Positions 4,266-38,540 of a stretch of DNA of 48,136 nucleotides are shown piece after piece; the stretch's first letter is position 1; each line of letters opens with the position of its first letter. Both the position numbers and the translations under genes were made by a program. The stretch lies in contig WJJV01000112.1 in the NCBI GenBank assembly GCA_014729495.1, forward strand, positions 1-48,136, given 5' to 3'. The notes beneath the pieces are model-generated. The model was given only the letters and a program-made list of their open reading frames with translations. It was not told where the DNA came from and did not search any database. The stretch comes from Candidatus Woesearchaeota archaeon. Its GTDB lineage: Archaea; Nanobdellota; Nanobdellia; Woesearchaeales; UBA12501.

Positions 4266-4313
4266 CTTATTAACCAAAAATTTATAAGTAACTTATTCTG
4301 TTAACCTGTTAAC
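4261..4313. promoter_or_regulatory. Two GTTAA-N4-TTAAC palindromes flanking a TATA-like box, abutting the start of the small ORF
   Basis: 4261-4274 GTTAACTTATTAAC and 4300-4313 GTTAACCTGTTAAC, with TTTATAAG at 4281-4288. The ATG at 4314 immediately follows site 2, giving a leaderless-like geometry. Confidence 0.4.
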
Positions 4314-4574: not shown

Positions 4575-4614
4575 CACAATAGGATAAAAGGCATAGTTAT
4601 GTTAACATATTAAC
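4562..4614. promoter_or_regulatory. Two further GTTAA-N4-TTAAC palindromes upstream of the subtilisin gene
   Basis: 4562-4575 GTTAATGGATTAAC (overlaps the stop of the small ORF) and 4601-4614 GTTAACATATTAAC. The SD AAGAGG and the ATG at 4649 follow. Confidence 0.4.
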
Positions 4615-4648
4615 AAGAAGAGGCAACAGCACCAAAAAGAGGCAGGAA

Positions 4649-7600
4649 ATGGGCAGTGATGATAGGATAGAACAGCTGATCAAAGAGCATGACAGGACTG
4701 ATGATGAATATGCTTCAGGAAAAGAGAGGATAAGCAGGCTGCAGTATGCTGTTATGTTTCTTGCACTGGCTTTTATGCTCTTTGGATTCTTCCTTATCAT
4801 AGAATACGGCGTGAGCCATACAGGGTATGCTGTGATAGAACAGAGCGGTAAAGTTGAGAGTGATGTTATAGAGGATCTTAAGGAAGGCGGAGAAGCAAGG
4901 GTGATCATAGTCCTTGAAGAGAATGAAGACAGCAGGAAGCAGGATTTCACTGGAATGAATCCTGAAGAGGTGGAAGATAAAATCAGGGAAAAGAAAGAGA
5001 AAGTCAAAGAAGCGCAGAAAGAGATAATAGATGATATCTCTGAGAGACCAGACAAGAAAGTAGGGATAAAACGCGCTTTTGAGCTTACAAATGCATTGAG
5101 CGCCAATGTGACAAAAGAAGGCATAGAAGAGCTGATAAAGAACAACAAGGTAAAAGAGATAATCAGGGACAGGCCAATAAGCATATCTCTCAGCGACACT
5201 ATCAGCATGATAAATGCTGATGATGTGCACCAGATGAGCATAAGCGGGACCAGCATTGAAGGACAGGGTATCAGTGTCTGTGTCATAGACACAGGGGTTG
5301 CTTACACACACTCAGCATTTGGCAGCTGCGCAAACACAACAGATATCAATGATGGATCATGCCAAAAAGTGGTTGGAGGATATGATTTCGTGAATGAAGA
5401 TTTCAATCCTCTGGATGATAATGGACATGGAACCCATGTTGCAGGAATAATCGCATCAGAGGATGCTGCTTACAAAGGGATAGCTCCCAAAGCAGGCATT
5501 GTGGCAATAAAGTCACTTGACAGCAATGGAAGCGGTTTTGAATCTGATGTGGCCAGCGGAATAGAGTGGTGCATCAGCAATTCCACGCTTCTGAACATAT
5601 CAGTGATAAGCATGAGCCTCGGAGAAGGCCAGTATACAGATGACAACTGCCCATCTACTTTTGATTCAGCGATAAACGCTGCCAATGCTCTTGGCATAAT
5701 GGTGGTTGCTGCTTCAGGAAACAACAATAATGATGATGCGATAAGCTCTCCTGCATGCTCTCCTAATGTCACATCTGTAGGGGCAGTTACAAAGACAGAC
5801 AGCATACCCAGCTTCTCGAACAGCCACCCTATCCTTGACCTTCTTGCTCCTGGAGTTTCTGTGGTATCAGCAGTGCCTCCTGAGAGCTACTGCACAGGAG
5901 ATCCAGGAGAGGCAAGCTGCAGTGACTCTCTATTCATGAGCCTGCAGGGAACATCCATGGCAACACCCCATGCAGCAGGAGCAGCTGCTCTGATATACCA
6001 GTATGAGAAGCTTCTGAGCAGCAGGAATGCCACCCCTTCAGGAATAGAGAGAATCCTCAAGAGGACAGGGATCAGCATAGATGACACCAGAAACAGCCTT
6101 TCTTTTCCAAGAATAGATGTGCTTAGTGCAGTCAATGCTGTCCTTCAGATCAATGAATCAGAGAACTCAGTGAATGATGCCCAGAATAATGCAAGAGTGG
6201 TCTTCAGGACAGGCACAGACCTGGAAAGGGCTTCAGAAGCATTTATCATAGAGGAAAATCTCATAAGCCTGAATTCATCTGCATACCCTGAATTCAACAA
6301 GCCAGCAGACCTTATCCTATACAATCTGGACTTTGCCAAGACACCGGTTGTACTGAAGGATGGAGTCGCGTGCGCAATCCCAGACTGCAATGTCACATCC
6401 TATGATGGAAACCTTAGCTTCTCTGTCGCAGGATTCTCAAACTATACCTCAGGAGCAAATGCCAAGCTGAGCATATTTGATGAAGTAGATAATGGGACTA
6501 CAAGATACACGCATGAGAACATAACATTCTATGCCAACTACACCAACATGACATCAGGAGATCCCATAAGCACAGCAGTCTGCAACATAACATTTGATGA
6601 CATGACAAACTCAACAATGACCTATGAATCCTCAACAGGATTCTATAATTACACCAGGGAATTCCTGACAGCAGACCTGTATCATTGGAATGTGAGCTGC
6701 GAAGACAGTGATGCAGAGCCGTTGAACACAACAGATGACATAACAGTCCTGCCTGGCTGCGGCCTGCCCCCTCCAGGCATTGACTGGAACATATCAGATG
6801 CTACTGTCAACTGCAACAATGAGAATCTTTATTTCCAGAATCAGAGCCTTATTGTCCAGGGCAATTCTACTTTGATACTGAACAACAGCCTGCTGACCCT
6901 CAATCAGTCCCCGTCTGATCAGAACATAACAATAATGAACAGCACAAAGCTGATAGCATATGATTCAAGAATACAAAGCCAGGCTGCCCCATACAACTTT
7001 GATATCATTGTGTACGGAAACTGCACTCTCTTCAATGTCACAGGAAACCAGTCACAGTATCACTTCAAGGCCAGTTCAAGCAGAATACAAAATTCTGCTT
7101 TTCAGGATTATATGTATTTTGAGGGCAATTCTGCAGTAGAGGTATATGATTCTGTATTCAATGGCAGGGTGTTCTCGCAGGAATCTGCAGTGCTAAAGAC
7201 AGATAACTCCACATACAATGATTATGTGTTCCTGATGGGATCATCAGACAACACCATAAGCAACTCAGCATTCAATAGCAGGCTGTATTTTGATGACGCC
7301 TCAGTCACAAATTTCACAACACCCGGCTCTTTAGTATCTGCGGCCTATTTCCAGGCAGCTTCACCAGCAATATACGGCCATGCAGATATGCCTGATACTG
7401 CTTCTTTCTATCAGGCCGGGACAATGACCACAAGACACTACCCAATCCAGATCAATTACACAAGCGGAAATCCTGTGAACCGCACGCAGGTAAATATCAC
7501 TAATTCTTCCAGCAGTGCCCTGATGTGGACAGGTTATACTGACGAGAACGGTCTTGCGGATGCTGTGCTTAAGTTCAGCTCAGATAACTACACTGAGAAT

Positions 7601-8509
7601 CTCACAGTATCTGTCAATCCTTCAGAGAACATAAGCCTGATGACAGACACACCAATGATCATGACTCTTCCTGATCCTGAATACTGCGGAGATGGCATAA
7701 AAAATGGTGCTGAGCAGTGCGATGGCTCTGACCTCGGAGGGGCATCATGCGCTGACTTCGGATTTGACACAGGGACACTTGGATGCACTGCTGCATGCAA
7801 TCACAATACAGCAGGATGCTCTGATAATGATGACAGTGGCTCAGGGAGCAGAGGAGGATTCAATTGCGAGATGGAGTGGGTGTGCTCTGAATGGAGCGGA
7901 TGCATTGACGGAAAGAGCACCAGGAACTGCACAGACATGAATAAGTGCACAGGCAGCTATGAGAAGATACAGGAGAAGACCTGCCATGAGATAGAAAAGC
8001 AGGATGAGGATGATGGCATCATGCCTGCATCAGACAGGGCAGGTGAACAACAGCACGCAAGCATGCCTGAAGAAGAGGCTGCACCAAGGACAGAAAATCC
8101 AGGAATCCCAGGATTCAGCTATCTCATCATTCTTCCGATAATCTTCCTGCCCCTGCTGCTTATAGGCCTGCCAAGAAGAGTGGTGTTCGCAGAAGAGGAA
8201 GTGCTCAAGCGCATGATAAGCAAGGGTCATCATAAGAGATACTCAAGGATACACGTGACTGAGGATGTACATCAAAGATACAGCACACACCCCAATATAA
8301 TGCCAAGAAAATTTGATCCAAAGAATCATGGCATCATAATATCCCTTCTAAAGACAGAGTATGGAATGGAGCATGAGCTTGCAGAGCTGACTGCCATTGC
8401 AAGCAGGCATCTTTTTGCCACAGTGCTGACAAACAAGGAAGTTCCTGATGAGCTCAAGCACAGGTTCAGAAGAATAAGGTTCCGGAACCCTGTTGCAAGG
8501 TCCAGATGA
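4649..8509 (+). CDS. Membrane-anchored S8 subtilisin-like serine protease with a long glycosylation-rich stalk, Cys-rich repeats, a C-terminal TM segment and a cytoplasmic tail
   Basis: The catalytic triad contexts are present: VIDTGV, HGTHVAGI, GTSMATPHAAG. There is an N-terminal TM segment plus an I9-like propeptide and dozens of N-x-S/T sequons. The Cys-rich CGDGIKNGAEQCDG... repeat is followed by the TM segment FSYLIILPIIFLPLLLIGL and a ~113-aa tail. Confidence 0.9.
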   Translation: MGSDDRIEQLIKEHDRTDDEYASGKERISRLQYAVMFLALAFMLFGFFLIIEYGVSHTGYAVIEQSGKVESDVIEDLKEGGEARVIIVLEENEDSRKQDFTGMNPEEVEDKIREKKEKVKEAQKEIIDDISERPDKKVGIKRAFELTNALSANVTKEGIEELIKNNKVKEIIRDRPISISLSDTISMINADDVHQMSISGTSIEGQGISVCVIDTGVAYTHSAFGSCANTTDINDGSCQKVVGGYDFVNEDFNPLDDNGHGTHVAGIIASEDAAYKGIAPKAGIVAIKSLDSNGSGFESDVASGIEWCISNSTLLNISVISMSLGEGQYTDDNCPSTFDSAINAANALGIMVVAASGNNNNDDAISSPACSPNVTSVGAVTKTDSIPSFSNSHPILDLLAPGVSVVSAVPPESYCTGDPGEASCSDSLFMSLQGTSMATPHAAGAAALIYQYEKLLSSRNATPSGIERILKRTGISIDDTRNSLSFPRIDVLSAVNAVLQINESENSVNDAQNNARVVFRTGTDLERASEAFIIEENLISLNSSAYPEFNKPADLILYNLDFAKTPVVLKDGVACAIPDCNVTSYDGNLSFSVAGFSNYTSGANAKLSIFDEVDNGTTRYTHENITFYANYTNMTSGDPISTAVCNITFDDMTNSTMTYESSTGFYNYTREFLTADLYHWNVSCEDSDAEPLNTTDDITVLPGCGLPPPGIDWNISDATVNCNNENLYFQNQSLIVQGNSTLILNNSLLTLNQSPSDQNITIMNSTKLIAYDSRIQSQAAPYNFDIIVYGNCTLFNVTGNQSQYHFKASSSRIQNSAFQDYMYFEGNSAVEVYDSVFNGRVFSQESAVLKTDNSTYNDYVFLMGSSDNTISNSAFNSRLYFDDASVTNFTTPGSLVSAAYFQAASPAIYGHADMPDTASFYQAGTMTTRHYPIQINYTSGNPVNRTQVNITNSSSSALMWTGYTDENGLADAVLKFSSDNYTENLTVSVNPSENISLMTDTPMIMTLPDPEYCGDGIKNGAEQCDGSDLGGASCADFGFDTGTLGCTAACNHNTAGCSDNDDSGSGSRGGFNCEMEWVCSEWSGCIDGKSTRNCTDMNKCTGSYEKIQEKTCHEIEKQDEDDGIMPASDRAGEQQHASMPEEEAAPRTENPGIPGFSYLIILPIIFLPLLLIGLPRRVVFAEEEVLKRMISKGHHKRYSRIHVTEDVHQRYSTHPNIMPRKFDPKNHGIIISLLKTEYGMEHELAELTAIASRHLFATVLTNKEVPDELKHRFRRIRFRNPVARSR

Positions 8510-8542
8510 GCATAAGAGAATGCCAGACTGAGAATTCAGGCA

Positions 8543-9241
8543 TCACTTTATGCTGTGCACAACAAGGCCTTTGCTGGTTATCTCCAGAGGGTGGATGTCC
8601 TCATCATTCTTTGTCTTTCTCATCTTTCTCACAAGAAGGCTTCTTGAAAGGTCTCCGCCCATGGACTCATAGATGACATGGATTATTCCGTCGCAGATAA
8701 ACTCTGATATGCTGTCCTTTGAGAGGGACTTGTCATCTGCTGTATGGCTTATCAGCATTGAGGTCACATTGCTGCTCCTTTTGATGCTGTTCACGAAGCT
8801 GTAGATGAACCTGTTCATGGCAGTCTGAGGATTCTGGACAGTATAAGGAGAGTTTATGGCAAGCGTTGAGAGAGAGTCTATCACTACCCTGTTTATCCTT
8901 TCATCCTTGATCATCTTGATTATATCGTTCACTGTATTGTTGCTTATCTCTTCTGCAGGGATGCACAGGAACTTGACAATGCCTTTGGACACATGCTTCT
9001 TGACGTCCAGATTCAACTGCTCTGCCTGCTCTGTAATGCTTTCAGAAGACTCTTCAAATGAGATATAGAGCCCTTTTTCCCCGAACTTCTCTGCACCTCT
9101 GCTGATGAACTCAACGCCGAATATGGTCTTGCCTGTGCCAGGTGTTCCTGACATGAGAATGCAGCTGCCTTTTGGCAGTCCTCCTTCAACCAGATTATCA
9201 AATCCTCTGATTCCTGTCTTTATCCTTTCAATAACAACCAT
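8543..9241 (-). CDS. KaiC-like / RecA-superfamily single-domain ATPase
   Basis: IKTGIRGFDNLVEGGLPKGS, Walker A GTPGTGKT, Walker B RVVIDSL. The C-terminal SRSLLVRKMRKTKNDEDIHPLEITSKGL is near-identical to the paralog at 16023-16775. The ORF track starts at 9286, but a minus-strand TTTATTTATAT box about 25 nt upstream favours the ATG at 9241 (MVVIERIK). Confidence 0.8.
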   Translation of the reverse strand: MVVIERIKTGIRGFDNLVEGGLPKGSCILMSGTPGTGKTIFGVEFISRGAEKFGEKGLYISFEESSESITEQAEQLNLDVKKHVSKGIVKFLCIPAEEISNNTVNDIIKMIKDERINRVVIDSLSTLAINSPYTVQNPQTAMNRFIYSFVNSIKRSSNVTSMLISHTADDKSLSKDSISEFICDGIIHVIYESMGGDLSRSLLVRKMRKTKNDEDIHPLEITSKGLVVHSIK

Positions 9242-9351
9242 TACATAGACAATGTGCAGATATAAATAAAAGGTTTTCGGATTCATACCATCCCTAAACA
9301 GTTACTAAGATTATAAGAAAATGAAACAAATCCATCTATAGCAGAAAATGA

Positions 9352-12327
9352 TCATGTACTGAAATCTATTGTGAACTCATCCTGACCTATCATCTCAATG
9401 CTTGCTGAGTCAATCACCATATCCTCATTTCTGATCCTGAAACAGTAGCAGCCTCTCTCAGGAACAGTGATATGCGATGTCCTCTCTTTCTGCCCGTCCT
9501 GCCATTCAACTGTATCAGTATGCACCTCTTCGCCAGGATCTGAGCACTCACCTTTGAGTATGTGATAGGCTATCCTCAGCCAGTCCACTCCGAGCTGAGC
9601 CCTGAAGACCTTGTCAGGTATGAATGTGACCTCTCCATTCAGGCCGTGCATCCTGATTATGTGGTTTGTCGAAGACTCAATAGAGAGCCCCAGCTTGCCT
9701 GTCCTTACCTCATTTGTCTTGCTTGCTGGATTGGTTCCTGCACACTCAATCTCAGGCTTAAGCTCTTCAGGCTCTGCTGCCTCCACATCAATGACATACT
9801 CCTCAGCTTCCCTTACACTGATATCATCAAGATCAGTATAGACTGCCTCAAGGTCATTTCCGGACATAAAGTATTCATCATGCTCAGCAAGAACCCTTGA
9901 GGCTGCCCTTGTCCCAAGGACATCATATCCAGCAGCCACAAGCCCAAGATTGCCGTTGTTCTCGTAGAGCCTGAGTATTCCTGTATCCGGCCTTATTGTG
10001 CTCTCTTTTCCGCACGCAGGGAAGTCCAGACCCATAAGCTCTGCTGATACACTGTTAACACAAGGGCCTCCTATTGAGATTATGTTCCGGCTTTTCTCCA
10101 TCCCATCCATCTCGCTTGCCAGCTTAGCTGTGCCTGAGTCTATCTCATCTAGTACATACCTCTCTTTCTCCTCTATTATCTCAAGCTCTGAATAATGAGG
10201 AGCTATGAAGAAGTCATCTGTGAGCTCATTGTCTGGATAGTTCATGATGACCCATTGCTTGTCTTCATCATCATACAGAACATCTGTGGAGTATATTGTC
10301 GCTGACCTTATTGTGTCGCTGTTGCCTTCAGATATATCATGCCATCCTGCTTTGAGCAGGAGTGACCTGATATCATATATCTGCTGGAATGTGGAGCCGA
10401 ATGTTCCATTGGCCATGTTTGCTGCATAGAAGGCTTCAGGCAGCCCTCCTGGAATGCCCTGGCCTGCGTAAAGCCCTGCAGTCATAGCGATTATTGAGTT
10501 CCTATAAAGAACAAGCTCGTCTTTGGGACGTTCTATATCTATCTCTTCATTGGCAAGGTCAGGGTATAGCTTTATGCTAATGTTTGTTACATAATCTGAA
10601 GTCTCATCATCTGTCTCCTCCAGAAGATGGAATGTCGCATTCTCTCCCTCTGTATCAAGCGTGAAAGTGGCTCCTTTGCCTGTCTCAGCAGGCTGGTCAA
10701 GAACAGAATCAGTGATGTTGACAATGCCGTTGGTCTCGTCTATTATCATCTGGATATTGCCTATGCCTGAAAGGTATAATACTGAGGGAGCTGTTGTGCT
10801 GTCTGTGTAATCCTCATCATCATGATCCCTGCTGTAAGTCCTGTCATAAATATCAATCTTATCTTTTGAAGTGTCTATGTCTCTTATCTCAAGGATGTGA
10901 AGCTCTTCGCCTGTTGTGACAGCGAATATCAGGCTGCCTTCGCATTCTTTGACAGATGTCTTATTGCAGATATCACCTTCCATGAGGAGCTGTTCATCAT
11001 CATCCTCTCCGAACAGCACAGCTGAGCCATTCATGTAGAGAGGTATTGCCGCTTTCCTGCCGTCATTGTTGTCCAATAATATCTCTGCTTCGTCATCCCC
11101 GTCTGTCTCTATCTGTATTGACTCTATAATATAGTTGACTCCGCCATGCACCATCTTAAAGCTCTGGAAAACAGGATCAAGCATCTCTTCCTCTTCACTG
11201 AGATAAATATCATCTTCAGGCTCATAGCTTATGTTGAATCCTTTCCATTCACCTGCGATTCCCTGGAAGTAGACTCTTGATCCGCTGACATCCATGCCGT
11301 CAATCTCTACTTCATTGCCGTCCTCAAGCGTCAGCTCTGATGCTCCGAGGCTGAGCCTGCATATATCAGTGTCCTGAAGTTCAGAATGCACAGCCACAGC
11401 TTCAGCCAATCCTATGGTGATTCCGTTGATCTCCCTGCTGGAGCCTTTACTTATCCAGAGGATATCTCCATCAACAGATACTCCGCACATGTCCTCATCA
11501 TCATTCACATCCATTACCTCTATCTCATGCTCAGTTCCTTCTATGATCCTGTTTAGTGTCTTTCCCTGCTGGAGCCATAATATGCTGTCGCCTGAAAGCA
11601 GAGTCAGCTTGTTTATCCTGTAGCCTCCAGATGCTCCTGCATCTCCTACATAGGTTATTGTGTAATCCCTGCCCTGGATAGTAAGCAGTGTGTCTTCCAG
11701 GTCATCTGAGGGCCTCTGGCCTGATGCTGAGCTGTTCGTGTACTCAACAGGATCATCGAACTCCAGTGAGTAATCATAGATCAGGTCACTGCTGTCAAAG
11801 AGCACATAAGGTCCTGAATCCCTGCCATCAGGCTGGTGCAGCTTTGCCACGCCTGATTCAGAATCATCTATGAATCGGAGTATCTGCCTGTACCTGTTGC
11901 TGTTTGATGTCTCTCCTTCATCATCCTCATAGGTCTCCTCAGCAAGTATCACCGGCAGTTCATTCTCACCGATCCTCTCATAGACATCAGCCAGGCTGTC
12001 AAGTCCTGGAGTATAATGATTGCCTGGCCGGTCAATCCTGAAAGCCCCTTCCATATCCCTTATGGCAAGATCAAGGGCTATACTCTTCCCTTGTTTCATA
12101 GCATACTGAAGCCCTGTGCCTATATCTATTGCTCCGATGACATCTCCTGGATCAGCTTCATCACCTATCACTATCACTGCATCTAGTGAGCCGTCATCTA
12201 TGAATATCTCTGGGTAGAATTCAAGATCAGGAGGGTTAGCAAGTACGCAGAAAGAGTTTATGATGATGAACGCAAGCGCAACAGGAAAGATGATGGCTTC
12301 AGTCCTGATATTATTGATCTTATACAC
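9352..12327 (-). CDS. S-layer-like large secreted surface protein
   Basis: About 990-1018 aa and acidic. The motifs DAVIVIGDEA..DVIGAIDI and NIISIGGPCVNSVSAEL resemble archaeal S-layer domain ends. The GTG at 12327 gives a classic signal peptide, MYKINNIRTEAIIFPVALAFIIINSFCVLA, and sits about 25 nt downstream of a TATA-like box. The ORF-track ATG at 12408 is the alternative start. Confidence 0.6.
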   Translation of the reverse strand: MYKINNIRTEAIIFPVALAFIIINSFCVLANPPDLEFYPEIFIDDGSLDAVIVIGDEADPGDVIGAIDIGTGLQYAMKQGKSIALDLAIRDMEGAFRIDRPGNHYTPGLDSLADVYERIGENELPVILAEETYEDDEGETSNSNRYRQILRFIDDSESGVAKLHQPDGRDSGPYVLFDSSDLIYDYSLEFDDPVEYTNSSASGQRPSDDLEDTLLTIQGRDYTITYVGDAGASGGYRINKLTLLSGDSILWLQQGKTLNRIIEGTEHEIEVMDVNDDEDMCGVSVDGDILWISKGSSREINGITIGLAEAVAVHSELQDTDICRLSLGASELTLEDGNEVEIDGMDVSGSRVYFQGIAGEWKGFNISYEPEDDIYLSEEEEMLDPVFQSFKMVHGGVNYIIESIQIETDGDDEAEILLDNNDGRKAAIPLYMNGSAVLFGEDDDEQLLMEGDICNKTSVKECEGSLIFAVTTGEELHILEIRDIDTSKDKIDIYDRTYSRDHDDEDYTDSTTAPSVLYLSGIGNIQMIIDETNGIVNITDSVLDQPAETGKGATFTLDTEGENATFHLLEETDDETSDYVTNISIKLYPDLANEEIDIERPKDELVLYRNSIIAMTAGLYAGQGIPGGLPEAFYAANMANGTFGSTFQQIYDIRSLLLKAGWHDISEGNSDTIRSATIYSTDVLYDDEDKQWVIMNYPDNELTDDFFIAPHYSELEIIEEKERYVLDEIDSGTAKLASEMDGMEKSRNIISIGGPCVNSVSAELMGLDFPACGKESTIRPDTGILRLYENNGNLGLVAAGYDVLGTRAASRVLAEHDEYFMSGNDLEAVYTDLDDISVREAEEYVIDVEAAEPEELKPEIECAGTNPASKTNEVRTGKLGLSIESSTNHIIRMHGLNGEVTFIPDKVFRAQLGVDWLRIAYHILKGECSDPGEEVHTDTVEWQDGQKERTSHITVPERGCYCFRIRNEDMVIDSASIEMIGQDEFTIDFST

Positions 12328-12425
12328 CTCTTTATGATCTAAGAATAGGATATAAGTATAGTTGATATATAAAAGTTTTGCATGATAATGCTGATAATGC
12401 ATTACCAATCATAAAGGACTGGCAT

Positions 12426-12728
12426 TCAGAACTCTGACTTGTCAACCATATAGATGAACATTATCTTTGATGCAGACTCTATCCTCTGGCACTGCACCTT
12501 GCCGTTGAACTTCAGCTCATCCCTCAGCTGTCTGGGTATAAGGAAGTATTTTGTTGCCTCATTCTTGCCCCTCTGGCTAAGATTGGCCTCAAGCTGTGAA
12601 TTATGCAGAGAGAAAAGATGGATCTTGTCCATATGTCCCTGAAGCTGCTTTGCTTCATCATAGTCAACAGCAACCTCAAAGACCACTTTCCGGTCATCCC
12701 TTATCCTTGAAGATATTATATTGCCCAT
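12426..12728 (-). CDS. Small protein with an AbrB/SpoVT-like C-terminal half (tentative)
   Basis: 100 aa. SQRGKNEATKYFLIPRQLRDELKFNGKV matches the RGK..x..IPxxxRxxL pattern of archaeal AbrB-type swapped-hairpin domains. It lies directly upstream of the S-layer-like gene on the same strand. Confidence 0.45.
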   Translation of the reverse strand: MGNIISSRIRDDRKVVFEVAVDYDEAKQLQGHMDKIHLFSLHNSQLEANLSQRGKNEATKYFLIPRQLRDELKFNGKVQCQRIESASKIMFIYMVDKSEF

Positions 12729-13054
12729 GATATGTTGCCTCTGTGGTCTGCGTACAAGATTATTGCACTGATAAGACAGGATAAATGCAATTATTTAAAA
12801 AATTTATGGATAAAAAAATTGTTTTTGGGATAAAACAGGAATTGCCTATCCAGCCTGATCATTGCATTCAGTTGAATATCAATTATTGTAGATTGACTAT
12901 AGGAGAAAGCAATCAGTATTCATCATCATTATTTATCCAGAATAAGATTATCAGGATAAGAATTGATGGGTAAAGCTTAATAGTAAAGATATCAAACAAT
13001 CATAAGAGGTGTATTTTTATCAAAGCAAAATATTTTCCGATAATCTCTTATGCA

Positions 13055-14590
13055 GTGCAGTCAAGAGGGCCTGTCCTGAGCGGACTTTTCACTGATAATG
13101 GCCTTGGACTTCTTGCAGCTTATATTGAACGTGCAGGATACAAGCCAGTGATATTTGATTATAACAACACTGAAACAATAAGAGATGTTGCTCAGCATGG
13201 CAAAGAAGGGTTTGTCAAAGGAGCTGTTGATGAGATTGATCAGTTTGTGAAGCAGAAAGAGCTCAGCATTATAGGATTCAAGGCATATGCAAATGGATTC
13301 AGGGATACTGTGAGCATGATAAGCCAGCTTAAGCATAGGAATCCTAAGCTAAAGGTGGTCATAGGAGGCCCGCATGTAGGGTGGTTCGGAAAGCATATTC
13401 TTAATGCGAGCACTGAGGCAGACTATGCAATAATCGGTGAAGCAGAGGAATCGCTTCCTATGCTGATTGATAGTGTCTACAAAGGAGGCACTGTGCAGGA
13501 TATACCAAACCTCATTTACAGGCATGGGAAAGATTTGGTTCAGAACCCCCGGAAGTTCACTAAGCTTGATGATCTCCTCCACCCCATATACAATAAAGAG
13601 GTCTATAGGGATATTGAGAGCAAGATATTCGTGCCTGTTGTTGAGAACAGCAGAGGATGCTGGTGGAACAAGTGCAGTTTCTGCGCATATCCTCTCACTA
13701 ATGGGCTATTCAGGCAGAGGCCGGTTGAACAGGTGGTGGCAGAGCTTGAGCACAACAAGAATACATTCGGAGCAGCATTCTCAAGGCTTGCTGACCCAAG
13801 CCCTTCTCCAAAAGCTCTTCACAAGCTTGTTGATAATCTAGGGCCTGAATACAGGCTCAGCTCATTCATCAGGACAGCAAAAGGATATGATTTTGAGAAG
13901 CTGGCGCGCAATTTCATAACATTCTTTGTGGGAGTTGAGTCAGCAAACCATCATGCACTCAAGAATGTGCTCAACAAGACCAATGACCCTGAAAGATACC
14001 TTGCAGATGCCAGAAAGATGCTTTCTGATGCAGAAAGAGCAGGGATCTCAATGAATGTGTCAATGATCATACCTTCCCCTGGAGAGACAGACGAGACAAT
14101 GCAGGAAAGCATTGATTTTATACTTGAGACCCAGCCCCATTATTTCACCTGCCTTCCTCTGGGCCCGATACCTGGAAGGCCTGTTTCAGAAAAAGCGCTT
14201 GAACAGGGAGAATCAGGAGATCTTGTCCTGAAAGATAGCCATCTGTCTGAAGGCATATTCTATGAGGTAGACCCATTGCTCCCTCATGACCAGTGGATGG
14301 ATCCATTGTGGTATCTAAGGGTGAATGGCGAGCTGCATCCCAATGCTTTTGAGATCACAAAAGAGCTTATCGGGCAGACTATGGAAGCAGGAATACCTCC
14401 ATCTTCTGATGAAGTTGTACTTATGGCATATCTGATGAACAACGGACTGAGTGATGTCAAGGAAGAGAACAGAAGACAAGTGTTTGATTTCATGATGAAA
14501 GCAAGGGCAAGCCTTGCAGAAGGGAACTTTGAAGAGACAGAGAAGCTGAAAGATACTATAAATGCCAATCAGGGAATAAGATGGCCATAA
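13055..14590 (+). CDS. B12-binding-domain radical SAM protein
   Basis: The N-terminal Rossmann-like B12 module contains KVVIGGPHVG. The radical SAM core is ENSRGCWWNKCSFCAY; note the CX4CX2C spacing. The GTG start at 13055 lies about 24 nt downstream of the AAAATATTTT box. The upstream in-frame sequence is also open, so the start is uncertain. Confidence 0.8.
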   Translation: MQSRGPVLSGLFTDNGLGLLAAYIERAGYKPVIFDYNNTETIRDVAQHGKEGFVKGAVDEIDQFVKQKELSIIGFKAYANGFRDTVSMISQLKHRNPKLKVVIGGPHVGWFGKHILNASTEADYAIIGEAEESLPMLIDSVYKGGTVQDIPNLIYRHGKDLVQNPRKFTKLDDLLHPIYNKEVYRDIESKIFVPVVENSRGCWWNKCSFCAYPLTNGLFRQRPVEQVVAELEHNKNTFGAAFSRLADPSPSPKALHKLVDNLGPEYRLSSFIRTAKGYDFEKLARNFITFFVGVESANHHALKNVLNKTNDPERYLADARKMLSDAERAGISMNVSMIIPSPGETDETMQESIDFILETQPHYFTCLPLGPIPGRPVSEKALEQGESGDLVLKDSHLSEGIFYEVDPLLPHDQWMDPLWYLRVNGELHPNAFEITKELIGQTMEAGIPPSSDEVVLMAYLMNNGLSDVKEENRRQVFDFMMKARASLAEGNFEETEKLKDTINANQGIRWP

Positions 14591-15372
14591 AGACAATACT
14601 AGCCCAAACAAAAGAAGAGCTTGAGATGGGAGCGCTCGTGAGATTTAAAGTATTTGCTGATGACGAAGGAAGCCTTATCCCATCTGATTTCCCATCTGGC
14701 AGAGAGATAGATGGGTTTGATATCCATCAAACATCTGCAATGATAATTGCCTTGGATGCTGATGAACCTGTAGGCACAGTAAGAGTGCTTCTTGAGAACA
14801 GAGAGATTGCTGATAGAAATGGATGGGATTATGGCCTTGACATAGAGACTATGTATTCCCTCAGACCCTACAAAGATAGAGAAATAGCTATTGCAGAAGT
14901 TCCCCGCACATGTGTTATTAAGTCACACAGAAGAGGTCCTGTTCTGATGGAACTTTACAAGAAGGTTTACCAGTTCTGCAGGGATGCTGATGTGACTCAT
15001 GTATGCGGGTCTGTATCAACTTATTCTGATAATATAAAGGATGCTGAGATAATATATTACCTGATCAGAAAGAAAGGAATGCTGGGAGATATTGAACTTC
15101 CAAGAAAAGAGAGTCATATAAAGTCAGAGGGTATAAAGATAGACCAGTATCCTGATCTGGATGATTCTTCACCTGACACTATAGAAAAATATCTAAAAAG
15201 AGGCGATGAGCTTCGACTTCCAGGAATTGTAAGAGTCCTCAGTAATCTTGGAGTAAAGATAGTAGGGCAGCCAGAGTATTACAGGAAATTTGACAGATAT
15301 ATTCTGCCTATGTCACTTGAACTCAGCAGTATTCCAGAACCGGCAAAATCTTATTTTGAGAGCAAATCATAA
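14581..15372 (+). CDS. GNAT-fold N-acyl amino acid synthase / LuxI-like acyltransferase (FeeM / exosortase-associated acyltransferase-like)
   Basis: The pattern A.TKEELE....LRFKVF..E.G.....FP.G.EIDGFD..S.......EPVGTVRVLL ... IAEVPR..V matches the Acetyltransf_5 / TIGR exosortase-acyltransferase family as I remember it. The ATG overlaps the radical SAM stop by 10 nt. Confidence 0.6.
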   Translation: MAIKTILAQTKEELEMGALVRFKVFADDEGSLIPSDFPSGREIDGFDIHQTSAMIIALDADEPVGTVRVLLENREIADRNGWDYGLDIETMYSLRPYKDREIAIAEVPRTCVIKSHRRGPVLMELYKKVYQFCRDADVTHVCGSVSTYSDNIKDAEIIYYLIRKKGMLGDIELPRKESHIKSEGIKIDQYPDLDDSSPDTIEKYLKRGDELRLPGIVRVLSNLGVKIVGQPEYYRKFDRYILPMSLELSSIPEPAKSYFESKS

Positions 15373-16011
15373 GCTCTTAGAAATATCCTTTATCCCTGAA
15401 ACAATATCTTTTGTTCTCTGTGCTTTGTAATTGGAATCCTTATCATTCCACTCTTCAACAGGCTTAATCATAAATTCACACTTCTTTTTTCCTGTTGCCA
15501 TACAAGAAGTTTCTACACAAAAAACCTTTATTCCAATAACTTCTTCAATAAAACCTGCACAACTCCCTCTTCCAAAGTGATCAACCTGGTGTTTCTGTAT
15601 CCCAAATATCTTCCGATATTCCTCTGCGTATGTAGAATACCCACTTAATATAAACAGATTATTCTTAAAATCTATGACTTTCCATTCCCATTTCCCCCAT
15701 CCAGCAAGCTCGCCCTGTCCTGTGTTAAACTGCAGGAGTTTTTTCTTGTCTGTGATTGTCTTTGCATACCCAAAATTCTGAGTTATAATCTTATAGACAT
15801 TTTTTGCCTGATATCTTCCCTGTTCATAAAAGAAGGTCATTGCTTCTTTTATACCTAAATTCTTTTCCATAATCCTATTAAGATAAACTGTTGAGAACAA
15901 AGGAAATACATTGCCAGGTGTATTCCAGAGAAGAAATTTTCCATCCTTAATTTGTATGGACTTAAATCTGAGTACTTTCTGCACTATTGAAGGAGGGGCC
16001 CTGAAACTCAT
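15367..16011 (-). CDS. V4R (4-vinyl reductase) domain small-molecule-binding protein
   Basis: The C-terminal GRGSCAGFIEEVIGIKVFCVETSCMATGKKKCEF is the hallmark V4R Cys pattern. This is the last gene of the sensor / KaiC / V4R operon. Its stop overlaps the GNAT stop tail-to-tail (TCATAA). Confidence 0.75.
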   Translation of the reverse strand: MSFRAPPSIVQKVLRFKSIQIKDGKFLLWNTPGNVFPLFSTVYLNRIMEKNLGIKEAMTFFYEQGRYQAKNVYKIITQNFGYAKTITDKKKLLQFNTGQGELAGWGKWEWKVIDFKNNLFILSGYSTYAEEYRKIFGIQKHQVDHFGRGSCAGFIEEVIGIKVFCVETSCMATGKKKCEFMIKPVEEWNDKDSNYKAQRTKDIVSGIKDISKSL

Positions 16012-16022
16012 ATTTATTCATC

Positions 16023-16775
16023 TCACTTTATAGTATGCACTTTCAAACCCTTGCTGCTTATCTCCAGAGGGTGTATATCCTCATCATTATGGGTGCCTCT
16101 CATTTTCCTTATGAGAAGACTTCTTGAATACTCTCCGCCCATTGACTCAAATGTGAGAAGAAGTACACCATCTGCCTGGAACTCAGACACAGTATCCCTG
16201 GAAAGATATTCTCCTTTCTCAGGAGCCTCTGAAGTGACAAGTGTTGTGCAGCCGAGGCTCTTCAGGTCTGTGAGAAATCCATAGATGAACCTCTTTATCA
16301 CAAAATCTCCAAGAACTGGAGGTGAGAAGAATGCCTTGTAGTTCATTATATCTCTCAGTGCTATGTCCTTTATAGGAGTATAGATAGGTGCATTGACAGC
16401 AAGTGTGGACAGTGAGTCAACAACAAGCCTTGTGACTTTTCTTTTCCTGACCTCTGCCTTTATCTCATCTATTGAGTGAGGCCCCAGAGAGTCTGCTGGT
16501 ATGTGCATGAGGGTCAGCTTTCCGCTCTTCTCCAGCTTTGATATATCAAGGCCTATGCCTTTTGCCTGCTCCCTGATGCTGTCAAGGCTCTGCTCAAGGG
16601 TTATGTACATTGATTTTTCTTTGAACTTGGATACTCCATTATGGATATACTCAAGGGTAAAAAGGGTCTTTCCTGTTCCTGGAGTGCCTATGACAAGTAC
16701 TGTGTGGCCCTGCGGTATCCCTCCCTCTATAAGCTTGTCAAATCCCTGGACTCCTGTCTTGATTCTCTTTGCCAT
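16023..16775 (-). CDS. KaiC-like / RecA-superfamily single-domain ATPase
   Basis: IKTGVQGFDKLIEGGIPQG, Walker A GTPGTGKT, Walker B RLVVDSL. Paralog of 8543-9241. Confidence 0.85.
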   Translation of the reverse strand: MAKRIKTGVQGFDKLIEGGIPQGHTVLVIGTPGTGKTLFTLEYIHNGVSKFKEKSMYITLEQSLDSIREQAKGIGLDISKLEKSGKLTLMHIPADSLGPHSIDEIKAEVRKRKVTRLVVDSLSTLAVNAPIYTPIKDIALRDIMNYKAFFSPPVLGDFVIKRFIYGFLTDLKSLGCTTLVTSEAPEKGEYLSRDTVSEFQADGVLLLTFESMGGEYSRSLLIRKMRGTHNDEDIHPLEISSKGLKVHTIK

Positions 16776-16779
16776 TGGT

Positions 16780-17718
16780 TCACCTCTTGGATTTCTTTGT
16801 TTTCTTTGATTTTGCTTGGTTTTTTCTGGATGATTTTTTCTTATATTCCTTGATATTGCCAGACTCTTTTGCCTGCGGAGTTATCTCAATCTTTCTCTTA
16901 TGCACCCCATCTTTAGGCACCTGTATGAATCCATTGGCAGCCCAGTACCTCAGCTGCTCCTCAAGGTCGAATATCTCGCTCAGGTCCCTCAAGAAGAATG
17001 CCTCTCCTATCTGATTCCCTTTTGAATCATGCAATGCAGTCAGATTGCTGACGACTATTATGGTTGAGCCGTCTTTTCTTCTTATGGGCAGGACAAAGTC
17101 CTCTACTTTCCCCCCTTTATTGAACTGCTGGAACTTCTCCTTCACCTTGTCCCTGACCATCTTGGAGGGGAATGCCCTGTCAAACAGCTCCTTCTCTGTC
17201 TGGATATCCTTCTCAGAGTATCCGGTCATCTTAAGGAACTCATTGTTTATTATCAGCAGCCCGTCTGCTCTCTTGAACCCTATTATGGGAATTCCTGAAT
17301 TCTCCAGAACATTCCTCACAAAATCCTCTGATTTCTTGTATTTCTTCTCTATCTCATCCTTTGCCTTCACGATCTCTTTCAGCCCAAGCCCCTTGCCTGT
17401 CCTCATCACAGCCAGCTTCATGCTTATGAGTATCCTGTTGAGTGACTTTGTAAGGTCTTCCAATTCGTCAATCCTGCAGGATTCCATTGATACTGTAAAG
17501 TCCCCTTCTGTTATCCTTTCTATGCCTGAGGATATCTTTGATATTGATGAGCTCATGCACCTTGATACAGCAATGAACAGTGTAAAGGACAGCACCAGTG
17601 TGATTATTATGGTTATGATATGCCCATAAGCGACCTCATCAAGAAAAAGGTACCAGGAAGACAGCACAAGAGCGGTTATTATCAGGAAACCTATTGTTAT
17701 AATCTGTCCAAGCTTCAT
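16780..17718 (-). CDS. Membrane sensor with two TM segments, a HAMP-like linker and a PAS domain, with no recognisable output domain
   Basis: Two N-terminal TM helices are followed by ISSGIERITEGDFTVSMES.RIDELEDLTKSLNRILISM (HAMP-like). The PAS-like region is FVRNVLENSGIPIIGFKRADGLLIINNEFLKMTGYSEKDI. The tail is Lys-rich. The stop lies 4 nt before the KaiC-like start. Confidence 0.7.
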   Translation of the reverse strand: MKLGQIITIGFLIITALVLSSWYLFLDEVAYGHIITIIITLVLSFTLFIAVSRCMSSSISKISSGIERITEGDFTVSMESCRIDELEDLTKSLNRILISMKLAVMRTGKGLGLKEIVKAKDEIEKKYKKSEDFVRNVLENSGIPIIGFKRADGLLIINNEFLKMTGYSEKDIQTEKELFDRAFPSKMVRDKVKEKFQQFNKGGKVEDFVLPIRRKDGSTIIVVSNLTALHDSKGNQIGEAFFLRDLSEIFDLEEQLRYWAANGFIQVPKDGVHKRKIEITPQAKESGNIKEYKKKSSRKNQAKSKKTKKSKR

Positions 17719-21960: not shown

Positions 21961-22436
21961 AGGGGTCTGTCCGGAATGAAGGTCATTGTCAAAATACTCA
22001 TTCCATTCGTATTTTTTCCCCTTTCAGCATTGCATGCTGAAAGCATCAATATGCGAAGCTCTATAATATATATTATTGAGGCTGTTGCAGGGGGAAGCCC
22101 CCTCCGAGGACGCAGGCCTTTAATATAAACAATCAAGAGCTGAGCCGATGCTGACCCGAACTTTTTACGCAGAAAAAAGAAGATTTCGGACAGACCCTTG
22201 GGTTGGAAGGCTTAACACTGGAATTATGCGAAGTTGCCTGAATGAGAGCCTGAAGGGCTTGAATTCAGCAATTTGGGCGAACAAGTGCAACGCAGTGAGC
22301 TGCATAATTCCTGTTATGTTCGTCGCCAGTTACGAGCGAACATCATGGATGTCATCAATTATTTCTGGTAACTGAAATAAGCATATGAGCGGAGTTCTGG
22401 CGACCGAAGCCTCAAAGAGGCGAAGAGTAATTTTTA
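21961..22436 (+). ncRNA. Candidate large structured non-coding RNA (unclassified)
   Basis: No credible ORF. There is a 17-bp long-range helix, 21961-21977 / 22183-22199, whose two G-U pairs are allowed only in the plus sense. Nested hairpins: 21991-22015, 22021-22043, 22090-22102, 22161-22179, 22220-22311 (11 bp enclosing 22234-22271 and 22246-22260), 22316-22343, 22359-22380, 22409-22421. It ends at a T5 run at 22431-22435. Confidence 0.35.
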
Positions 22437-22481
22437 GGGGTGCTCAGGGAGCGTTAGCGGTGCATCAAGTTAAAGGAGTTC

Positions 22482-22498
22482 GGGGCAAAAACAAAAAA
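22482..22498. repeat. Left inverted repeat GGGGCAAAAACAAAAAA
   Basis: Exact reverse complement of 24413-24429. It also serves as an oligo-T terminator on the minus strand for the Lrp-like gene. Confidence 0.85.
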
Positions 22499-22499
22499 C

Positions 22500-23468
22500 C
22501 TAGAATGGATAGTATGTCATCCTATGTTCTTTAATTACTTCTATAATCTCATAATCTTTAATTTCCAAAGCAAATTCTTCTCTTAGTTGTTTAATTAAAT
22601 TATCAAAATCTTTTTTTTCCAAAACTTCGATTTCTAATTCAACATCAAAATCACTAATTACTTTAATAAAAGTAAGAATATTTTTATTCATTTTTGATAT
22701 TGTTTTTATTTTGTTATATTTTTCTTTATCCATTCTTTGGAGTTTCAAAGATAATATATAGAAATTTCCTCCAATATTCTGGAAATTAATTTTTGTACTA
22801 AATCCTATGATAACATTTTTTTTCTGAAGGTTTTTTATCCTATAATTAATAGTATCTGGGCTGACATTTAATTCTTTTGAAATTTCAATTAAGGATTTTC
22901 TTGCATTTTTATTAAGTATAGAGAGTAATCTCTGGTCCGTTTTGTCTAACAATATCTCTTTTTCTTTTCCTCGGCTATAAATGAATTCTTCTGAATTTTT
23001 ATTTGGTAATAAATAAGCTTTAGAATAAGTATAAGCTTCTTCTAAAATAAAGATATTTCTTTCCAGAATGTAATCTTTCCATTTCCCAAATATCCTTTCG
23101 AATTTATTACTAAAATCATGAATATTTTTAACATAAATCGATGCCACTAAATCATATTTGCCTCTTAATGAAGATAACCAGAATACATTTTTTTCTTTAT
23201 TTAATTCTTTAATCATTTCTTGTTCTTTTTTGGGTGTAATATTGTATAATTTGATATAAATTTTAATATGCATAAATCCAAGTAGGGTTGGATTTAGTTT
23301 TACAAAGAAGTAATCAATCACATTTTTCTCCTGAAGATTGATTATTCTTGCAGCAACAGCTTGTTTTGATAAACCAACTTTTTTTGCTATTTTTTCATTA
23401 GTTTGCCTACTATTTTTATTTAGTTCATACAATATCTTTTTATCCTTTAGATCTGTTTTAATATACAT
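22500..23468 (-). CDS. Tandem (double) Lrp/AsnC-family transcriptional regulator
   Basis: 322 aa with two HTH_AsnC-like modules: KKILYELNKNSRQTNEKIAKKVGLSKQAVAARIINLQEKNVI and QRLLSILNKNARKSLIEISKELNVSPDTINYRIKNLQKKNVI. Each is followed by a RAM-like half. Strongly AT-rich codon usage. Paralog of 43877-44839. Confidence 0.75.
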   Translation of the reverse strand: MYIKTDLKDKKILYELNKNSRQTNEKIAKKVGLSKQAVAARIINLQEKNVIDYFFVKLNPTLLGFMHIKIYIKLYNITPKKEQEMIKELNKEKNVFWLSSLRGKYDLVASIYVKNIHDFSNKFERIFGKWKDYILERNIFILEEAYTYSKAYLLPNKNSEEFIYSRGKEKEILLDKTDQRLLSILNKNARKSLIEISKELNVSPDTINYRIKNLQKKNVIIGFSTKINFQNIGGNFYILSLKLQRMDKEKYNKIKTISKMNKNILTFIKVISDFDVELEIEVLEKKDFDNLIKQLREEFALEIKDYEIIEVIKEHRMTYYPF

Positions 23469-23588
23469 ATTAGAATAAAAACTGAAATAATATATAAATA
23501 TTACGGTTTTATTCTGAATCTATTAAGAAGGTTTTAAATAAATGTTCTTATTATTGAGTAATAAAAATAAATTAATTTTATCAAAAAA

Positions 23589-25507: not shown

Positions 25508-25644
25508 GATATCACCTCTTGCATGATAGTATGCTCCTGTTCTTTTTAAATATATCCCTGAAAGCAGACCATAGTAAACTACTATCGTAAACTATAAAAG
25601 TCAGGAGCAGATATATAACATCTATGGGTTTGCAGGGGGAGATA

Positions 25645-38462: not shown

Positions 38463-38540
38463 ATATTGCAAGCGGATCTGCCATACGCTTATTAGGATAG
38501 GCAGAAGGGAAAAAGAGGTAAAAAGAGGTAAACCCCGCAA

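Follow-up and report, generated by a model that had tools for sequence, protein, structure and literature searches.

A radical SAM, V4R, and KaiC-like gene module conserved among DPANN archaea, seen from a Woesearchaeota contig, and its candidate role in making and sensing an N-acyl compound

Two operons that end on top of each other in an archaeal contig raise the question of whether a pair of biosynthetic enzymes and a set of sensory proteins form one system and what such a system might make and sense. The window analyzed here is the complete 48,136-bp contig WJJV01000112.1 from “Candidatus Woesearchaeota.” At positions 13055 to 17718, the original prediction singled out five genes: a plus-strand pair for a cobalamin-binding radical S-adenosylmethionine (SAM) enzyme (here rSAM) and a GNAT-type acyltransferase (GNAT), converging on a minus-strand operon for a membrane HAMP-PAS sensor, a KaiC-like ATPase (KaiC1), and a V4R protein. 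It suggested that the locus makes an acyl compound and senses it. The list of open reading frames (ORFs) contains all five genes with the coordinates, overlaps, and gaps that had been described. rSAM and GNAT overlap by 10 nt, and GNAT is translationally coupled to rSAM through this overlap; GNAT and V4R overlap tail to tail by 6 nt; the gaps are 11 nt between V4R and KaiC1 and 4 nt between KaiC1 and the HAMP-PAS gene. Because the arrangement recurs in about 15 independent loci, these ORFs are real genes and not chance reading frames.

Conservation was surveyed from three anchors. The rSAM anchor comprised 11 orthologs (36 to 41% identity) and a scan covering a single genome for each GTDB species. 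For the V4R anchor, an alignment of ten orthologs was scanned against metagenome contigs, and for the GNAT anchor, 1.84 billion representative sequences were searched, followed by contig look-ups. Loci were mapped by phmmer with the window proteins as queries. Most of them are metagenomic and come without taxonomy; the archaeal loci that carry names all belong to DPANN, namely, to Woesearchaeota, Nanoarchaeia/Nanoarchaeota, and Aenigmatarchaeota. In about 15 nonredundant loci (Table 1), rSAM, V4R, and KaiC lie within about 3 kb, and this holds for every archaeal rSAM ortholog with usable flanking sequence. Across the linked loci, rSAM is 27 to 41% identical to the window protein. Starting from V4R or from GNAT leads independently to the same module, which is absent around more distant homologs of rSAM (L020 and L060) and of GNAT (L061). 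Synteny in relatives had been set beforehand as the test that could refute a link between the two operons; wherever an archaeal relative has sufficient flanking sequence, the enzyme operon lies next to the KaiC-V4R operon. What is directly observed is the gene content, the assignment to families, and the conservation of linkage; the module is kept under selection across several DPANN phyla.

Most of the loci are convergent. Two lineages are partly or wholly codirectional: in L005, a string of five genes has gaps of 10 nt or less, and in L018, a ligase gene sits between KaiC and V4R. In 9 of 11 loci, the convergent 3' ends overlap or nearly touch (-20 to +12 nt), which leaves no room for a terminator and implies overlapping antisense 3' ends. 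This could reflect genome compaction or be a regulatory feature. Flanking genes for HAD, EamA, and aspartyl-tRNA synthetase (AspRS) are syntenic between the window, L001, and L014; the flanks are completely different in L005, L006, L008, L010, L012, L018, L055, L058, and L059.

Table 1. Genes of the window and layout of the module in related loci (> and <, gene direction; ><, convergent junction; iKaiC, inactivated KaiC-like protein; RR, response regulator; ACAD, acyl-CoA dehydrogenase; SAM-MT, SAM methyltransferase)
Feature or locus	Source or type	Position	Strand	Evidence or gene order
KaiC2, second KaiC-like single-domain ATPase	window	8543-9286	-	Pfam KaiC ATPase, 179.5 bits
S-layer-like acidic surface protein, 1018 aa	window	9352-12408	-	Pfam S_layer_C, 50.2 bits
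p100, conserved 100-aa protein	window	12426-12728	-	divergent from rSAM operon; 65% identity to L001 copy
AT-rich intergenic spacer separating divergent p100 and rSAM operon; presumed promoter region	window	12729-13018	.	sequence read directly
rSAM, cobalamin-binding (class B) radical SAM	window	13019-14590 (annotated from GTG 13055)	+	Pfam B12-binding and Radical_SAM
GNAT, FeeM/OlsB-like N-acyltransferase (predicted), subgroup A, ~260 aa	window	14581-15372	+	Pfam Acetyltransf_5 and FeeM
V4R, stand-alone small-molecule-binding protein	window	15367-16011	-	Pfam V4R
KaiC1, single-domain KaiC-like (RecA-superfamily) ATPase	window	16023-16775	-	Pfam KaiC ATPase
Membrane-anchored HAMP-PAS sensor	window	16780-17718	-	PAS above threshold, HAMP below threshold, hydropathy
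Module, window	Ca. Woesearchaeota			rSAM>GNAT >< V4R<KaiC<HAMP-PAS
Module, L001	Nanoarchaeia			ACAD>rSAM>GNAT >< V4R<KaiC<HAMP
Module, L014	Nanoarchaeia			ACAD>rSAM>GNAT>SAM-MT >< V4R<KaiC<HAMP-PAS
Module, L012	Nanoarchaeota			rSAM>GNAT >< V4R<KaiC<p100
Module, L055				rSAM>GNAT >< V4R<362aa<KaiC
Module, L058				rSAM>GNAT >< V4R<KaiC<p100
Module, L059				rSAM>GNAT'>GNAT >< V4R<KaiC<p100
Module, L021 and L028	GNAT type			contig fragments, same layout
Module, L005	ligase type			KaiC>V4R>rSAM>ligase>iKaiC, one strand
Module, L006	ligase type			rSAM>ligase >< V4R<KaiC
Module, L008	ligase type			RR, iKaiC divergent from rSAM>ligase >< V4R<KaiC
Module, L010	Aenigmatarchaeota, ligase type			order as in L008
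Module, L013	uncultured archaeon, ligase type			fragment
Module, L018	Woesearchaeota, ligase type			rSAM >< V4R<ligase<KaiC<KaiC
p100 copy	L001	6120-6428
p100 copy	L014	4055-4453
p100 copy	L012	10755-11084
p100 copy	L023	5960-6268
p100 copy	L058	9136-9438
p100 copy	L059	4064-4390
Convergent junction	window	15367-15372
Convergent junction	L058	7761-7780
Convergent junction	L018	8516-8533

The survey redraws the predicted system in three respects. First, GNAT is not the conserved partner that it had been taken for. It falls into two subgroups, A (window, L012, L055, L058, and L059) and B (L001, L014, and L028), which barely recognize each other, subgroup B being nearer to a protein from “Candidatus Scalinduaceae.” In six lineages, the place of GNAT is taken by an adenylate-forming ligase of the PaaK/FlxY/F390-synthetase/LuxE type, about 450 aa long. 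In every case, the partner enzyme handles acyl groups (GNAT-A, GNAT-B, or a PaaK/FlxY/LuxE-like AMP ligase), and the invariant core consists of rSAM, V4R, and KaiC. In a neighbor-joining tree of rSAM, which has no support values, five ligase-type loci form one clade, L018 stands apart, and the GNAT type is paraphyletic, suggesting at least two replacements between GNAT and ligase.

Second, the HAMP-PAS protein is a lineage-specific signaling input. A HAMP or HAMP-PAS protein accompanies the module in the window, L001, L014, and L028, and a receiver-domain protein (response regulator) together with an inactivated KaiC-like protein of the DUF835/DUF7504/DUF7090 type does so in L005, L008, L010, and L013. 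Signaling parts of one kind or the other accompany the module in every variant.

Third, the module is larger than the predicted five genes, as p100 and KaiC2 extend it to 8543-17718. The p100 protein is 51 to 78% identical across five loci over its whole length, has an invariant KYFL.P.QLR motif, and in the relatives is always encoded directly upstream of a KaiC-like gene. The order p100>KaiC>V4R is found in L012, L023, L058, and L059, where the KaiC preceding V4R is of the KaiC2 type. The ATPase gene is present twice in the window, L001, and L014, where p100>KaiC2 and HAMP>KaiC1>V4R flank the enzyme operon from opposite sides. The p100 and KaiC2 genes are directly adjacent in L001 and L014; in the window, the gene for an S-layer-like protein lies between them, and the three form a codirectional minus-strand string with gaps of 17 nt and 65 nt (8543-12728). 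Because the S-layer-like gene is absent from that position in the relatives, it is probably not a component of the module; it looks like an insertion into the p100-KaiC2 pair. For p100, there is no Pfam match at an E value of ≤1 and no PADLOC match, and the only PDB profile match, to Top7, is a chance one; its single-sequence AlphaFold2 model is unusable, with a predicted local distance difference test (pLDDT) score of 51. Its C terminus (KYFLIPRQLR...) recalls the SpoVT/AbrB DNA-binding fold, a likeness with no profile or structure result behind it. KaiC2 weakly matches PAXNEB/Elp4, with an E value of 4.7e-4 that is below the gathering threshold (GA). A scan for sigma-70-type promoters and terminators, a model not applicable to archaea, returned sites no more frequent than in shuffled sequence.

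Pfam matches were judged against GA and NCBIfam matches against curated equivalog cutoffs. Of the domains originally called in the five proteins, those of rSAM, GNAT, V4R, KaiC, and PAS score above GA; HAMP does not. None of the five proteins reaches a curated NCBIfam equivalog.

The rSAM protein has the makeup of class B radical SAM enzymes, with an N-terminal B12-binding domain (PF02310; 50.5 bits, GA 32.1) and a three-cysteine Radical_SAM core (PF04055; 44.1 bits, GA 29.5). The triad C202/C207/C210 is invariant in 12 orthologs, spaced CX4CX2C in the window and CX3CX2C in some orthologs. In PDB sequence comparisons, the solved proteins that come closest are CysS (58.7 bits) and TokK (56.2 bits), both cobalamin-dependent C-methylases. 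They share the N-terminal B12-binding domain and the radical SAM core with the window protein at only 56 to 59 bits; the window protein is set apart from CysS, TokK, and BchE by its CX4CX2C motif, by about 120 C-terminal residues that are specific to its family, and by a predicted substrate unrelated to carbapenems, cystobactamids, or chlorophyll. All NCBIfam equivalog cutoffs are missed, which leaves rSAM outside the characterized subfamilies (C-methyltransferases of ribosomally synthesized and post-translationally modified peptides [RiPPs], PhpK, ladderane-cluster rSAM, HpnJ, BchE, and others); the best model is TIGR03975 (88.3 versus a cutoff of 281.85). Orthology to the ladderane-cluster enzyme was considered and rejected, TIGR04072 (ladder_B12) scoring 77.6 bits versus a cutoff of 360.

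The annotated GTG start of rSAM (13055) truncates a conserved N-terminal motif, YFPIISYA. Upstream of it, an in-frame KAKYFPIISYA fits the consensus FPLVSYAVQS of a 12-ortholog alignment. There is no ATG, GTG, or TTG in the rSAM frame between the stop at 12971 and position 13055, and a Shine-Dalgarno-like AGAGGTG at 13005-13011 lies 7 nt before an ATC at 13019. The sequence context indicates that the true start is probably upstream of 13055, at about 13019, at a noncanonical codon; the missing start codon suggests either such a start or else a sequencing error.

The GNAT protein was originally likened to FeeM, to LuxI, and to exosortase-associated acyltransferases. The first of these likenesses stands at the superfamily level, by profile and by fold; the other two do not hold at the family level. 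The protein scores above GA with both Acetyltransf_5 (43.0 bits, GA 22.4) and FeeM (PF21926; 36.5 bits, GA 27), and the motifs EPVGTVRVLL, EIDGFD, and IAEVPR are present as described. Exhaustive search of the 1.84 billion representatives puts the family at 289 representative clusters, most of which match at full length, about 260 aa. Among 71 family members, 63 pass the FeeM and Acetyltransf_5 models, 55 to 57 match the OlsB and exosortase-acyltransferase models (always under the cutoff), and only 5 match Autoind_synth. The near-invariant residues R21, D47, R68, E106, and R109 align to the corresponding motifs of BjaI. An AlphaFold2 model built from the family alignment (pLDDT, 96.6) has as its closest PDB folds in Foldseek the CoA-dependent acyl-homoserine lactone (AHL) synthase BjaI (E value, 5e-9) and FeeM (2g0b; E value, 1e-7; template modeling score, 0.72 to 0.75 on target length), followed by MesI, TofI, and LasI, with generic GNATs interleaved from rank 6. 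The model is nearest to FeeM and the acyl-homoserine lactone synthases rather than to acetyltransferases, and the protein does not score as a generic acetyltransferase only, the outcome that had been named as counting against the idea. Profiles and the predicted structure assign it to the FeeM/OlsB-type N-acyltransferase superfamily, with N-acyl transfer as its predicted activity. Nor are such GNATs unusual in small archaeal genomes, as had been supposed; they are recurrent in DPANN.

Compared with FeeM, whose R..R..VF, D..D, G..R, and E..R motifs it shares, the window GNAT is about 100 residues longer, comes from an archaeon, and is coupled to genes for a cobalamin rSAM and for KaiC and V4R. 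Membership in the LuxI family was rejected: no match to Autoind_synth (PF00765) was found for the window GNAT at an E value of ≤0.1, and the “HW” of BjaI (5w8a), which we take to contain the conserved N-terminal SAM-pocket Trp of LuxI-type synthases, aligns to “SL,” with Leu in place of Trp, in a HMMER alignment that is itself weak (E value, 0.18). OlsB membership was likewise rejected, with scores about tenfold under the equivalog cutoffs (31.1 versus 350 for NF052554 and 26.7 versus 320 for NF052555) and no OlsA-type O-acyltransferase nearby; the likeness to OlsB/OlsF lies in the length class (250 to 280 aa), and the L012 ortholog aligns over almost the whole OlsB model. Neither does the protein belong to the PEP-CTERM/exosortase-associated acyltransferases (TIGR03694; 35.9 versus 111.95): the window ORFs scanned include no exosortase-like gene, and the locus has no acyl carrier protein (ACP) gene. 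Three GNAT-family proteins carry a fused Haem_oxygenas_2 (“iron-containing redox enzyme”) domain, and in L004 (8001-11043), a stand-alone Haem_oxygenas_2 gene lies two genes downstream of a bacterial-looking rSAM ortholog (P0013). This may be a sign of a pathway variant with oxidative tailoring.

Several neighbors of the enzyme genes also belong to acyl chemistry. In L001 and L014, an acyl-CoA dehydrogenase gene overlaps the start of rSAM, and in L014, a SAM methyltransferase gene follows GNAT. In “Candidatus Scalinduaceae,” an anammox family, an rSAM 39% identical to the archaeal one is found in L011 (CBDCUS010000014.1, 3257-14716), in the order chain-length-factor (CLF)-like ketosynthase, ketosynthase, ACP, FeeM-type GNAT, rSAM, MMPL, LolA-like protein, and DUF1302. 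The catalytic His of the CLF-like ketosynthase is replaced by Ser and Tyr, and the GNAT in this case does match Autoind_synth (42.3, GA 24). This is a candidate lipid cluster, distinct from the one represented by the curated ladderane-cluster rSAM model. A more distant rSAM, in L060, follows a ketosynthase-like gene (recognized from its N-terminal sequence, with no profile match) and precedes a methyltransferase gene. In L019 (“Candidatus Scalindua” sp., 6962-10807), the gene for a TIR-domain protein of 499 aa comes after those for rSAM and a FeeM-type GNAT. No V4R or KaiC gene is present in these three bacterial loci, L011, L019, and L060. As the bacterial rSAM orthologs, 37 to 39% identical, come without V4R or KaiC, catalysis does not need these two proteins, which fits an add-on regulatory role for them.

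The TIR protein of L019 has ThsB-like PADLOC matches and is a defense-like neighbor. The idea of a defense system that it raised was dropped, PADLOC having given nothing specific: no module component fits a defense-system model, and the only matches are a generic one to the rSAM domain (PDC-M51A, 47 bits) and weak ones to P-loop proteins. Elsewhere in the window, at 24752-26012 on the minus strand, a FabG/enoyl-ACP-reductase-like short-chain dehydrogenase/reductase (adh_short_C2, 255 bits) is encoded beside a 166-aa ORF and is possibly a fragment of acyl-chain metabolism.

On the other side of the junction, the V4R protein (PF02830; 34.4 bits, GA 31) is about as long as the whole phenol-sensor domain of MopR or PoxR. 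V4R domains bind small hydrophobic ligands, and in bacterial regulators of the MopR/PoxR type, a V4R-containing sensor controls an ATPase domain. The PDB sequence matches of the window V4R are the sensor domains of PoxR, MopR, and CapR and, in addition, MJ1460, and a 49%-identical homolog is annotated as a “predicted hydrocarbon binding protein.” Residues E167, C170, and C178, invariant in 10 orthologs, retain the E..C.......C portion of the PoxR/MopR metal site; conservation does not extend to the first Cys of the MopR zinc site. A more distant V4R family of about 186 aa (27% identity), in L040 (7998-10319), L041, and L042, adjoins and is convergent with two KaiC-like genes, with no rSAM ortholog at these loci. 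The pairing of V4R with KaiC may be a wider archaeal theme.

KaiC1, a protein of 250 aa with a single KaiC ATPase domain (PF06745; 177 bits, GA 26.6), contains the Walker A motif GTPGTGKT, the Walker B motif RLVVDS, and a KMRGT motif, all read from the sequence. It misses all NCBIfam KaiC equivalog cutoffs; identity with the circadian KaiC was rejected on the grounds of the single domain and of TIGR02655 (109.9 versus 546.25). The sensor protein has a PAS domain (PAS_9, 34.8 bits, GA 27; TIGR00229, 46.1 versus 22.9) and a HAMP match of 22.2 bits, under the GA of 25. Hydropathy shows two N-terminal hydrophobic segments (residues ~1-30 and 24-59) with a loop of about 7 residues between them, so that the order is transmembrane segments, HAMP-like linker, PAS, and a Lys/Arg-rich tail; the L001 and L014 orthologs share this layout and the basic tail. 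In line with the original description, neither Pfam nor NCBIfam finds a kinase or other output domain in it.

What, then, might the locus do? We tentatively favor a reading in which the enzymes make an rSAM-tailored N-acyl compound and V4R-KaiC, with HAMP-PAS, acts as a ligand-gated ATPase switch; its chance of being correct falls slightly short of even. The locus at 8543-17718 would then be one copy of a conserved DPANN module with two halves. In the enzyme half, the FeeM/OlsB-like N-acyltransferase here, or the PaaK-like adenylating ligase in other lineages, would join an activated fatty or other hydrophobic acyl group to an amine, and rSAM would tailor the resulting N-acyl amide at an unactivated carbon, most likely by methylation. 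In the switch half, V4R, made together with the KaiC-like ATPase and p100, would bind the hydrophobic product or a precursor of it and so gate the ATPase, as a split archaeal counterpart of the MopR/DmpR logic, in which a V4R sensor controls an ATPase. Lineage-specific inputs would enter through the membrane HAMP-PAS protein, which has almost no external loop, or through the response regulator and the inactivated KaiC. We infer that V4R-KaiC senses the product of its own pathway; that compound could be either a signal or a membrane lipid. The assignment of the product and of the direction of control draws on sequence, predicted structure, and gene context.

Several points weigh against the ligand-gated switch. 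The product, the ligand, and the protein contacts are all putative. No DNA-binding or other output domain was identified in the module by profile searches, PDB searches, or the p100 model. GNAT lies under every curated equivalog cutoff (OlsB, 31 versus 350; exosortase acyltransferase, 36 versus 112), so that no curated family points to a particular acceptor or acyl donor. GNAT and the adenylating ligase are chemically nonequivalent, so that a common amide product is an assumption, and the replacement history is drawn from an rSAM tree that lacks support values. Cotranscription with the enzymes, as in L005 and L018, is commoner for subunits than for regulators.

Finally, V4R-KaiC is linked strictly to rSAM whatever the partner (GNAT-A, GNAT-B, or AMP ligase), which fits an accessory or chaperone role equally well. 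V4R and KaiC would in that case be accessory factors of rSAM, V4R carrying the substrate or the corrinoid (a tetrapyrrole) and the ATPase driving delivery, loading, or release. The short codirectional gaps or intermixed genes in L005 and L018, consistent with one transcript, and the overlapping or nearly touching 3' ends in most loci agree with such a role. Moreover, V4R genes cluster with tetrapyrrole (bilin) genes (PMC10151467), and a role as a chaperone of intermediates has been suggested for BchJ (PMC7242693), whose place in the pathway of the B12-rSAM cyclase BchE is a precedent for a V4R protein in a B12-rSAM pathway. However, the bacterial rSAM orthologs manage without V4R and KaiC, indicating that the enzyme has no intrinsic need for them, and the recruitment of signaling proteins in every lineage is not expected for a chaperone. 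To our knowledge, the B12 chaperones described so far are GTPases and fall in a different P-loop class. On balance, the accessory role is the main rival of the favored reading, somewhat unlikely but clearly worth weighing. That the module is a DPANN chemical-communication circuit, with an acyl signal made by the N-acyl amide synthase and rSAM and read by a V4R-gated KaiC with HAMP-PAS as a cosensor, we regard as decidedly unlikely.

The enzymes might instead modify a macromolecule, either by C-methylation and N-acylation of a protein or peptide (a RiPP-like system acting on p100, V4R, or KaiC) or by an Elongator-like tRNA modification. In Elongator-type tRNA modification, a RecA-fold ATPase ring cooperates with a radical SAM protein and a GNAT, and the weak PAXNEB/Elp4 match of KaiC2 points the same way, but the radical SAM domain of Elp3 is not of the cobalamin type. 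The best NCBIfam matches of rSAM include RiPP C-methyltransferase (88 bits), ApyD, and the glutamine C-methyltransferase of methyl-coenzyme M reductase, all far under their cutoffs, and the ligase variants weakly resemble the acyl-protein synthetase LuxE. The module also contains a conserved small protein, p100; at 51 to 78% identity over its full length, it is unlike a leader/core peptide, and it goes with KaiC2, away from V4R, in three lineages. The RiPP idea was rejected, since no short variable precursor gene is conserved beside rSAM and the gene contexts favor a lipid-like product. Against a macromolecular target in general, GNAT belongs with the long-chain acyl FeeM/OlsB/AHL synthases rather than with the acetyl-CoA-dependent lysine acetyltransferases (KAT type), the Scalinduaceae ketosynthases, ACP, MMPL, and LolA indicate a lipid-like compound, and the operon of two lineages includes an acyl-CoA dehydrogenase gene. 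A macromolecular target is accordingly very unlikely. Adjacency without functional meaning, through packing of unrelated operons or recent common inheritance, could be imagined in compact DPANN genomes, where convergent operons need not be coregulated and the HAD, EamA, and AspRS flanks are syntenic too, but it has next to no chance of being right and is effectively refuted by the synteny survey, in which the linkage survives 27 to 41% identity, partner replacement, inversion, and changed flanks in nine loci, is recovered from the V4R and GNAT anchors, and is missing around the distant homologs.

Set against known systems, the ligand-gated switch has partial parallels. As in LuxI/LuxR, a synthase-like gene whose best fold match is BjaI lies beside the gene for a hydrophobic-ligand-binding protein; however, the putative receptor is V4R plus KaiC, there is no LuxR-type transcription factor, and rSAM is obligatory. 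As in MopR, PoxR, DmpR, and XylR, a V4R protein that aligns to their sensor domains, including E..C.......C, is encoded with an oligomeric P-loop ATPase, but here the sensor and the ATPase are separate, the ATPase is of the RecA/KaiC type and not a sigma-54 AAA+ protein, and there is no helix-turn-helix (HTH) domain. Archaeal KaiC-like ATPases have been proposed to be “signal transduction hubs” (Makarova, Galperin and Koonin 2017, cited in PMC5847659). The single-domain KaiC with PAS/HAMP proteins, response regulators, and inactivated KaiC-like proteins of the DUF835/DUF7504 type resembles such hubs and differs from them by its dedicated, conserved pairing with V4R, p100, and a biosynthetic rSAM cassette. 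The literature searched, to which the text of the 2017 paper does not belong, holds nothing linking V4R with KaiC or radical SAM in archaea, nor does it connect cobalamin radical SAM enzymes with N-acyl amino acid synthases; of the matches listed for OlsB or aminolipids in DPANN, none named either term together with DPANN. The families of the parts are known, and their conserved combination appears to be undescribed.

The rest of the contig contains several other features. A 102-nt tRNA at 41196-41297 on the minus strand (Rfam, 57 bits), missed by ARAGORN, probably contains an archaeal intron, consistent with an archaeal source. The G+C content dips to 0.30 at 22001-24000, versus about 0.43 elsewhere; the dip spans a gene with a double AsnC-type HTH (22500-23468) and a 273-aa ORF, and a second, similar double-HTH protein is encoded at 43877-44839. 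Among the products of the regions 594-8509 and 36177-40823 are two putative secreted proteins of very large size, one beta-helix/NosD-like (1223 aa) and the other a subtilase (1286 aa), as well as a type IV secretion/pilus ATPase (T2SSE), whose gene is followed by a 760-aa ORF. Large secreted proteins together with T2SSE are typical cell-surface equipment of a DPANN episymbiont.

DPANN archaea, whose genomes are tiny, are thought to rely on hosts for lipids and cofactors, and very little is known of their sensing and signaling. The module is proposed to combine a small biosynthetic cassette with a KaiC-based ligand switch situated in the same cluster. It would provide a concrete input for the proposed, largely untested archaeal KaiC-like signaling hub and would be a candidate source of an archaeal fatty-acyl amide, aminolipid, or signal; its components are small soluble proteins suited to heterologous expression. 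The rSAM represents a new cobalamin radical SAM family common to archaea and anammox bacteria, found in the latter in a ketosynthase/ACP lipid cluster. If the communication circuit were real, this would be the first archaeal synthase-receptor pair for acyl signaling, in host-attached organisms, with a signal that may be diffusible or membrane borne.

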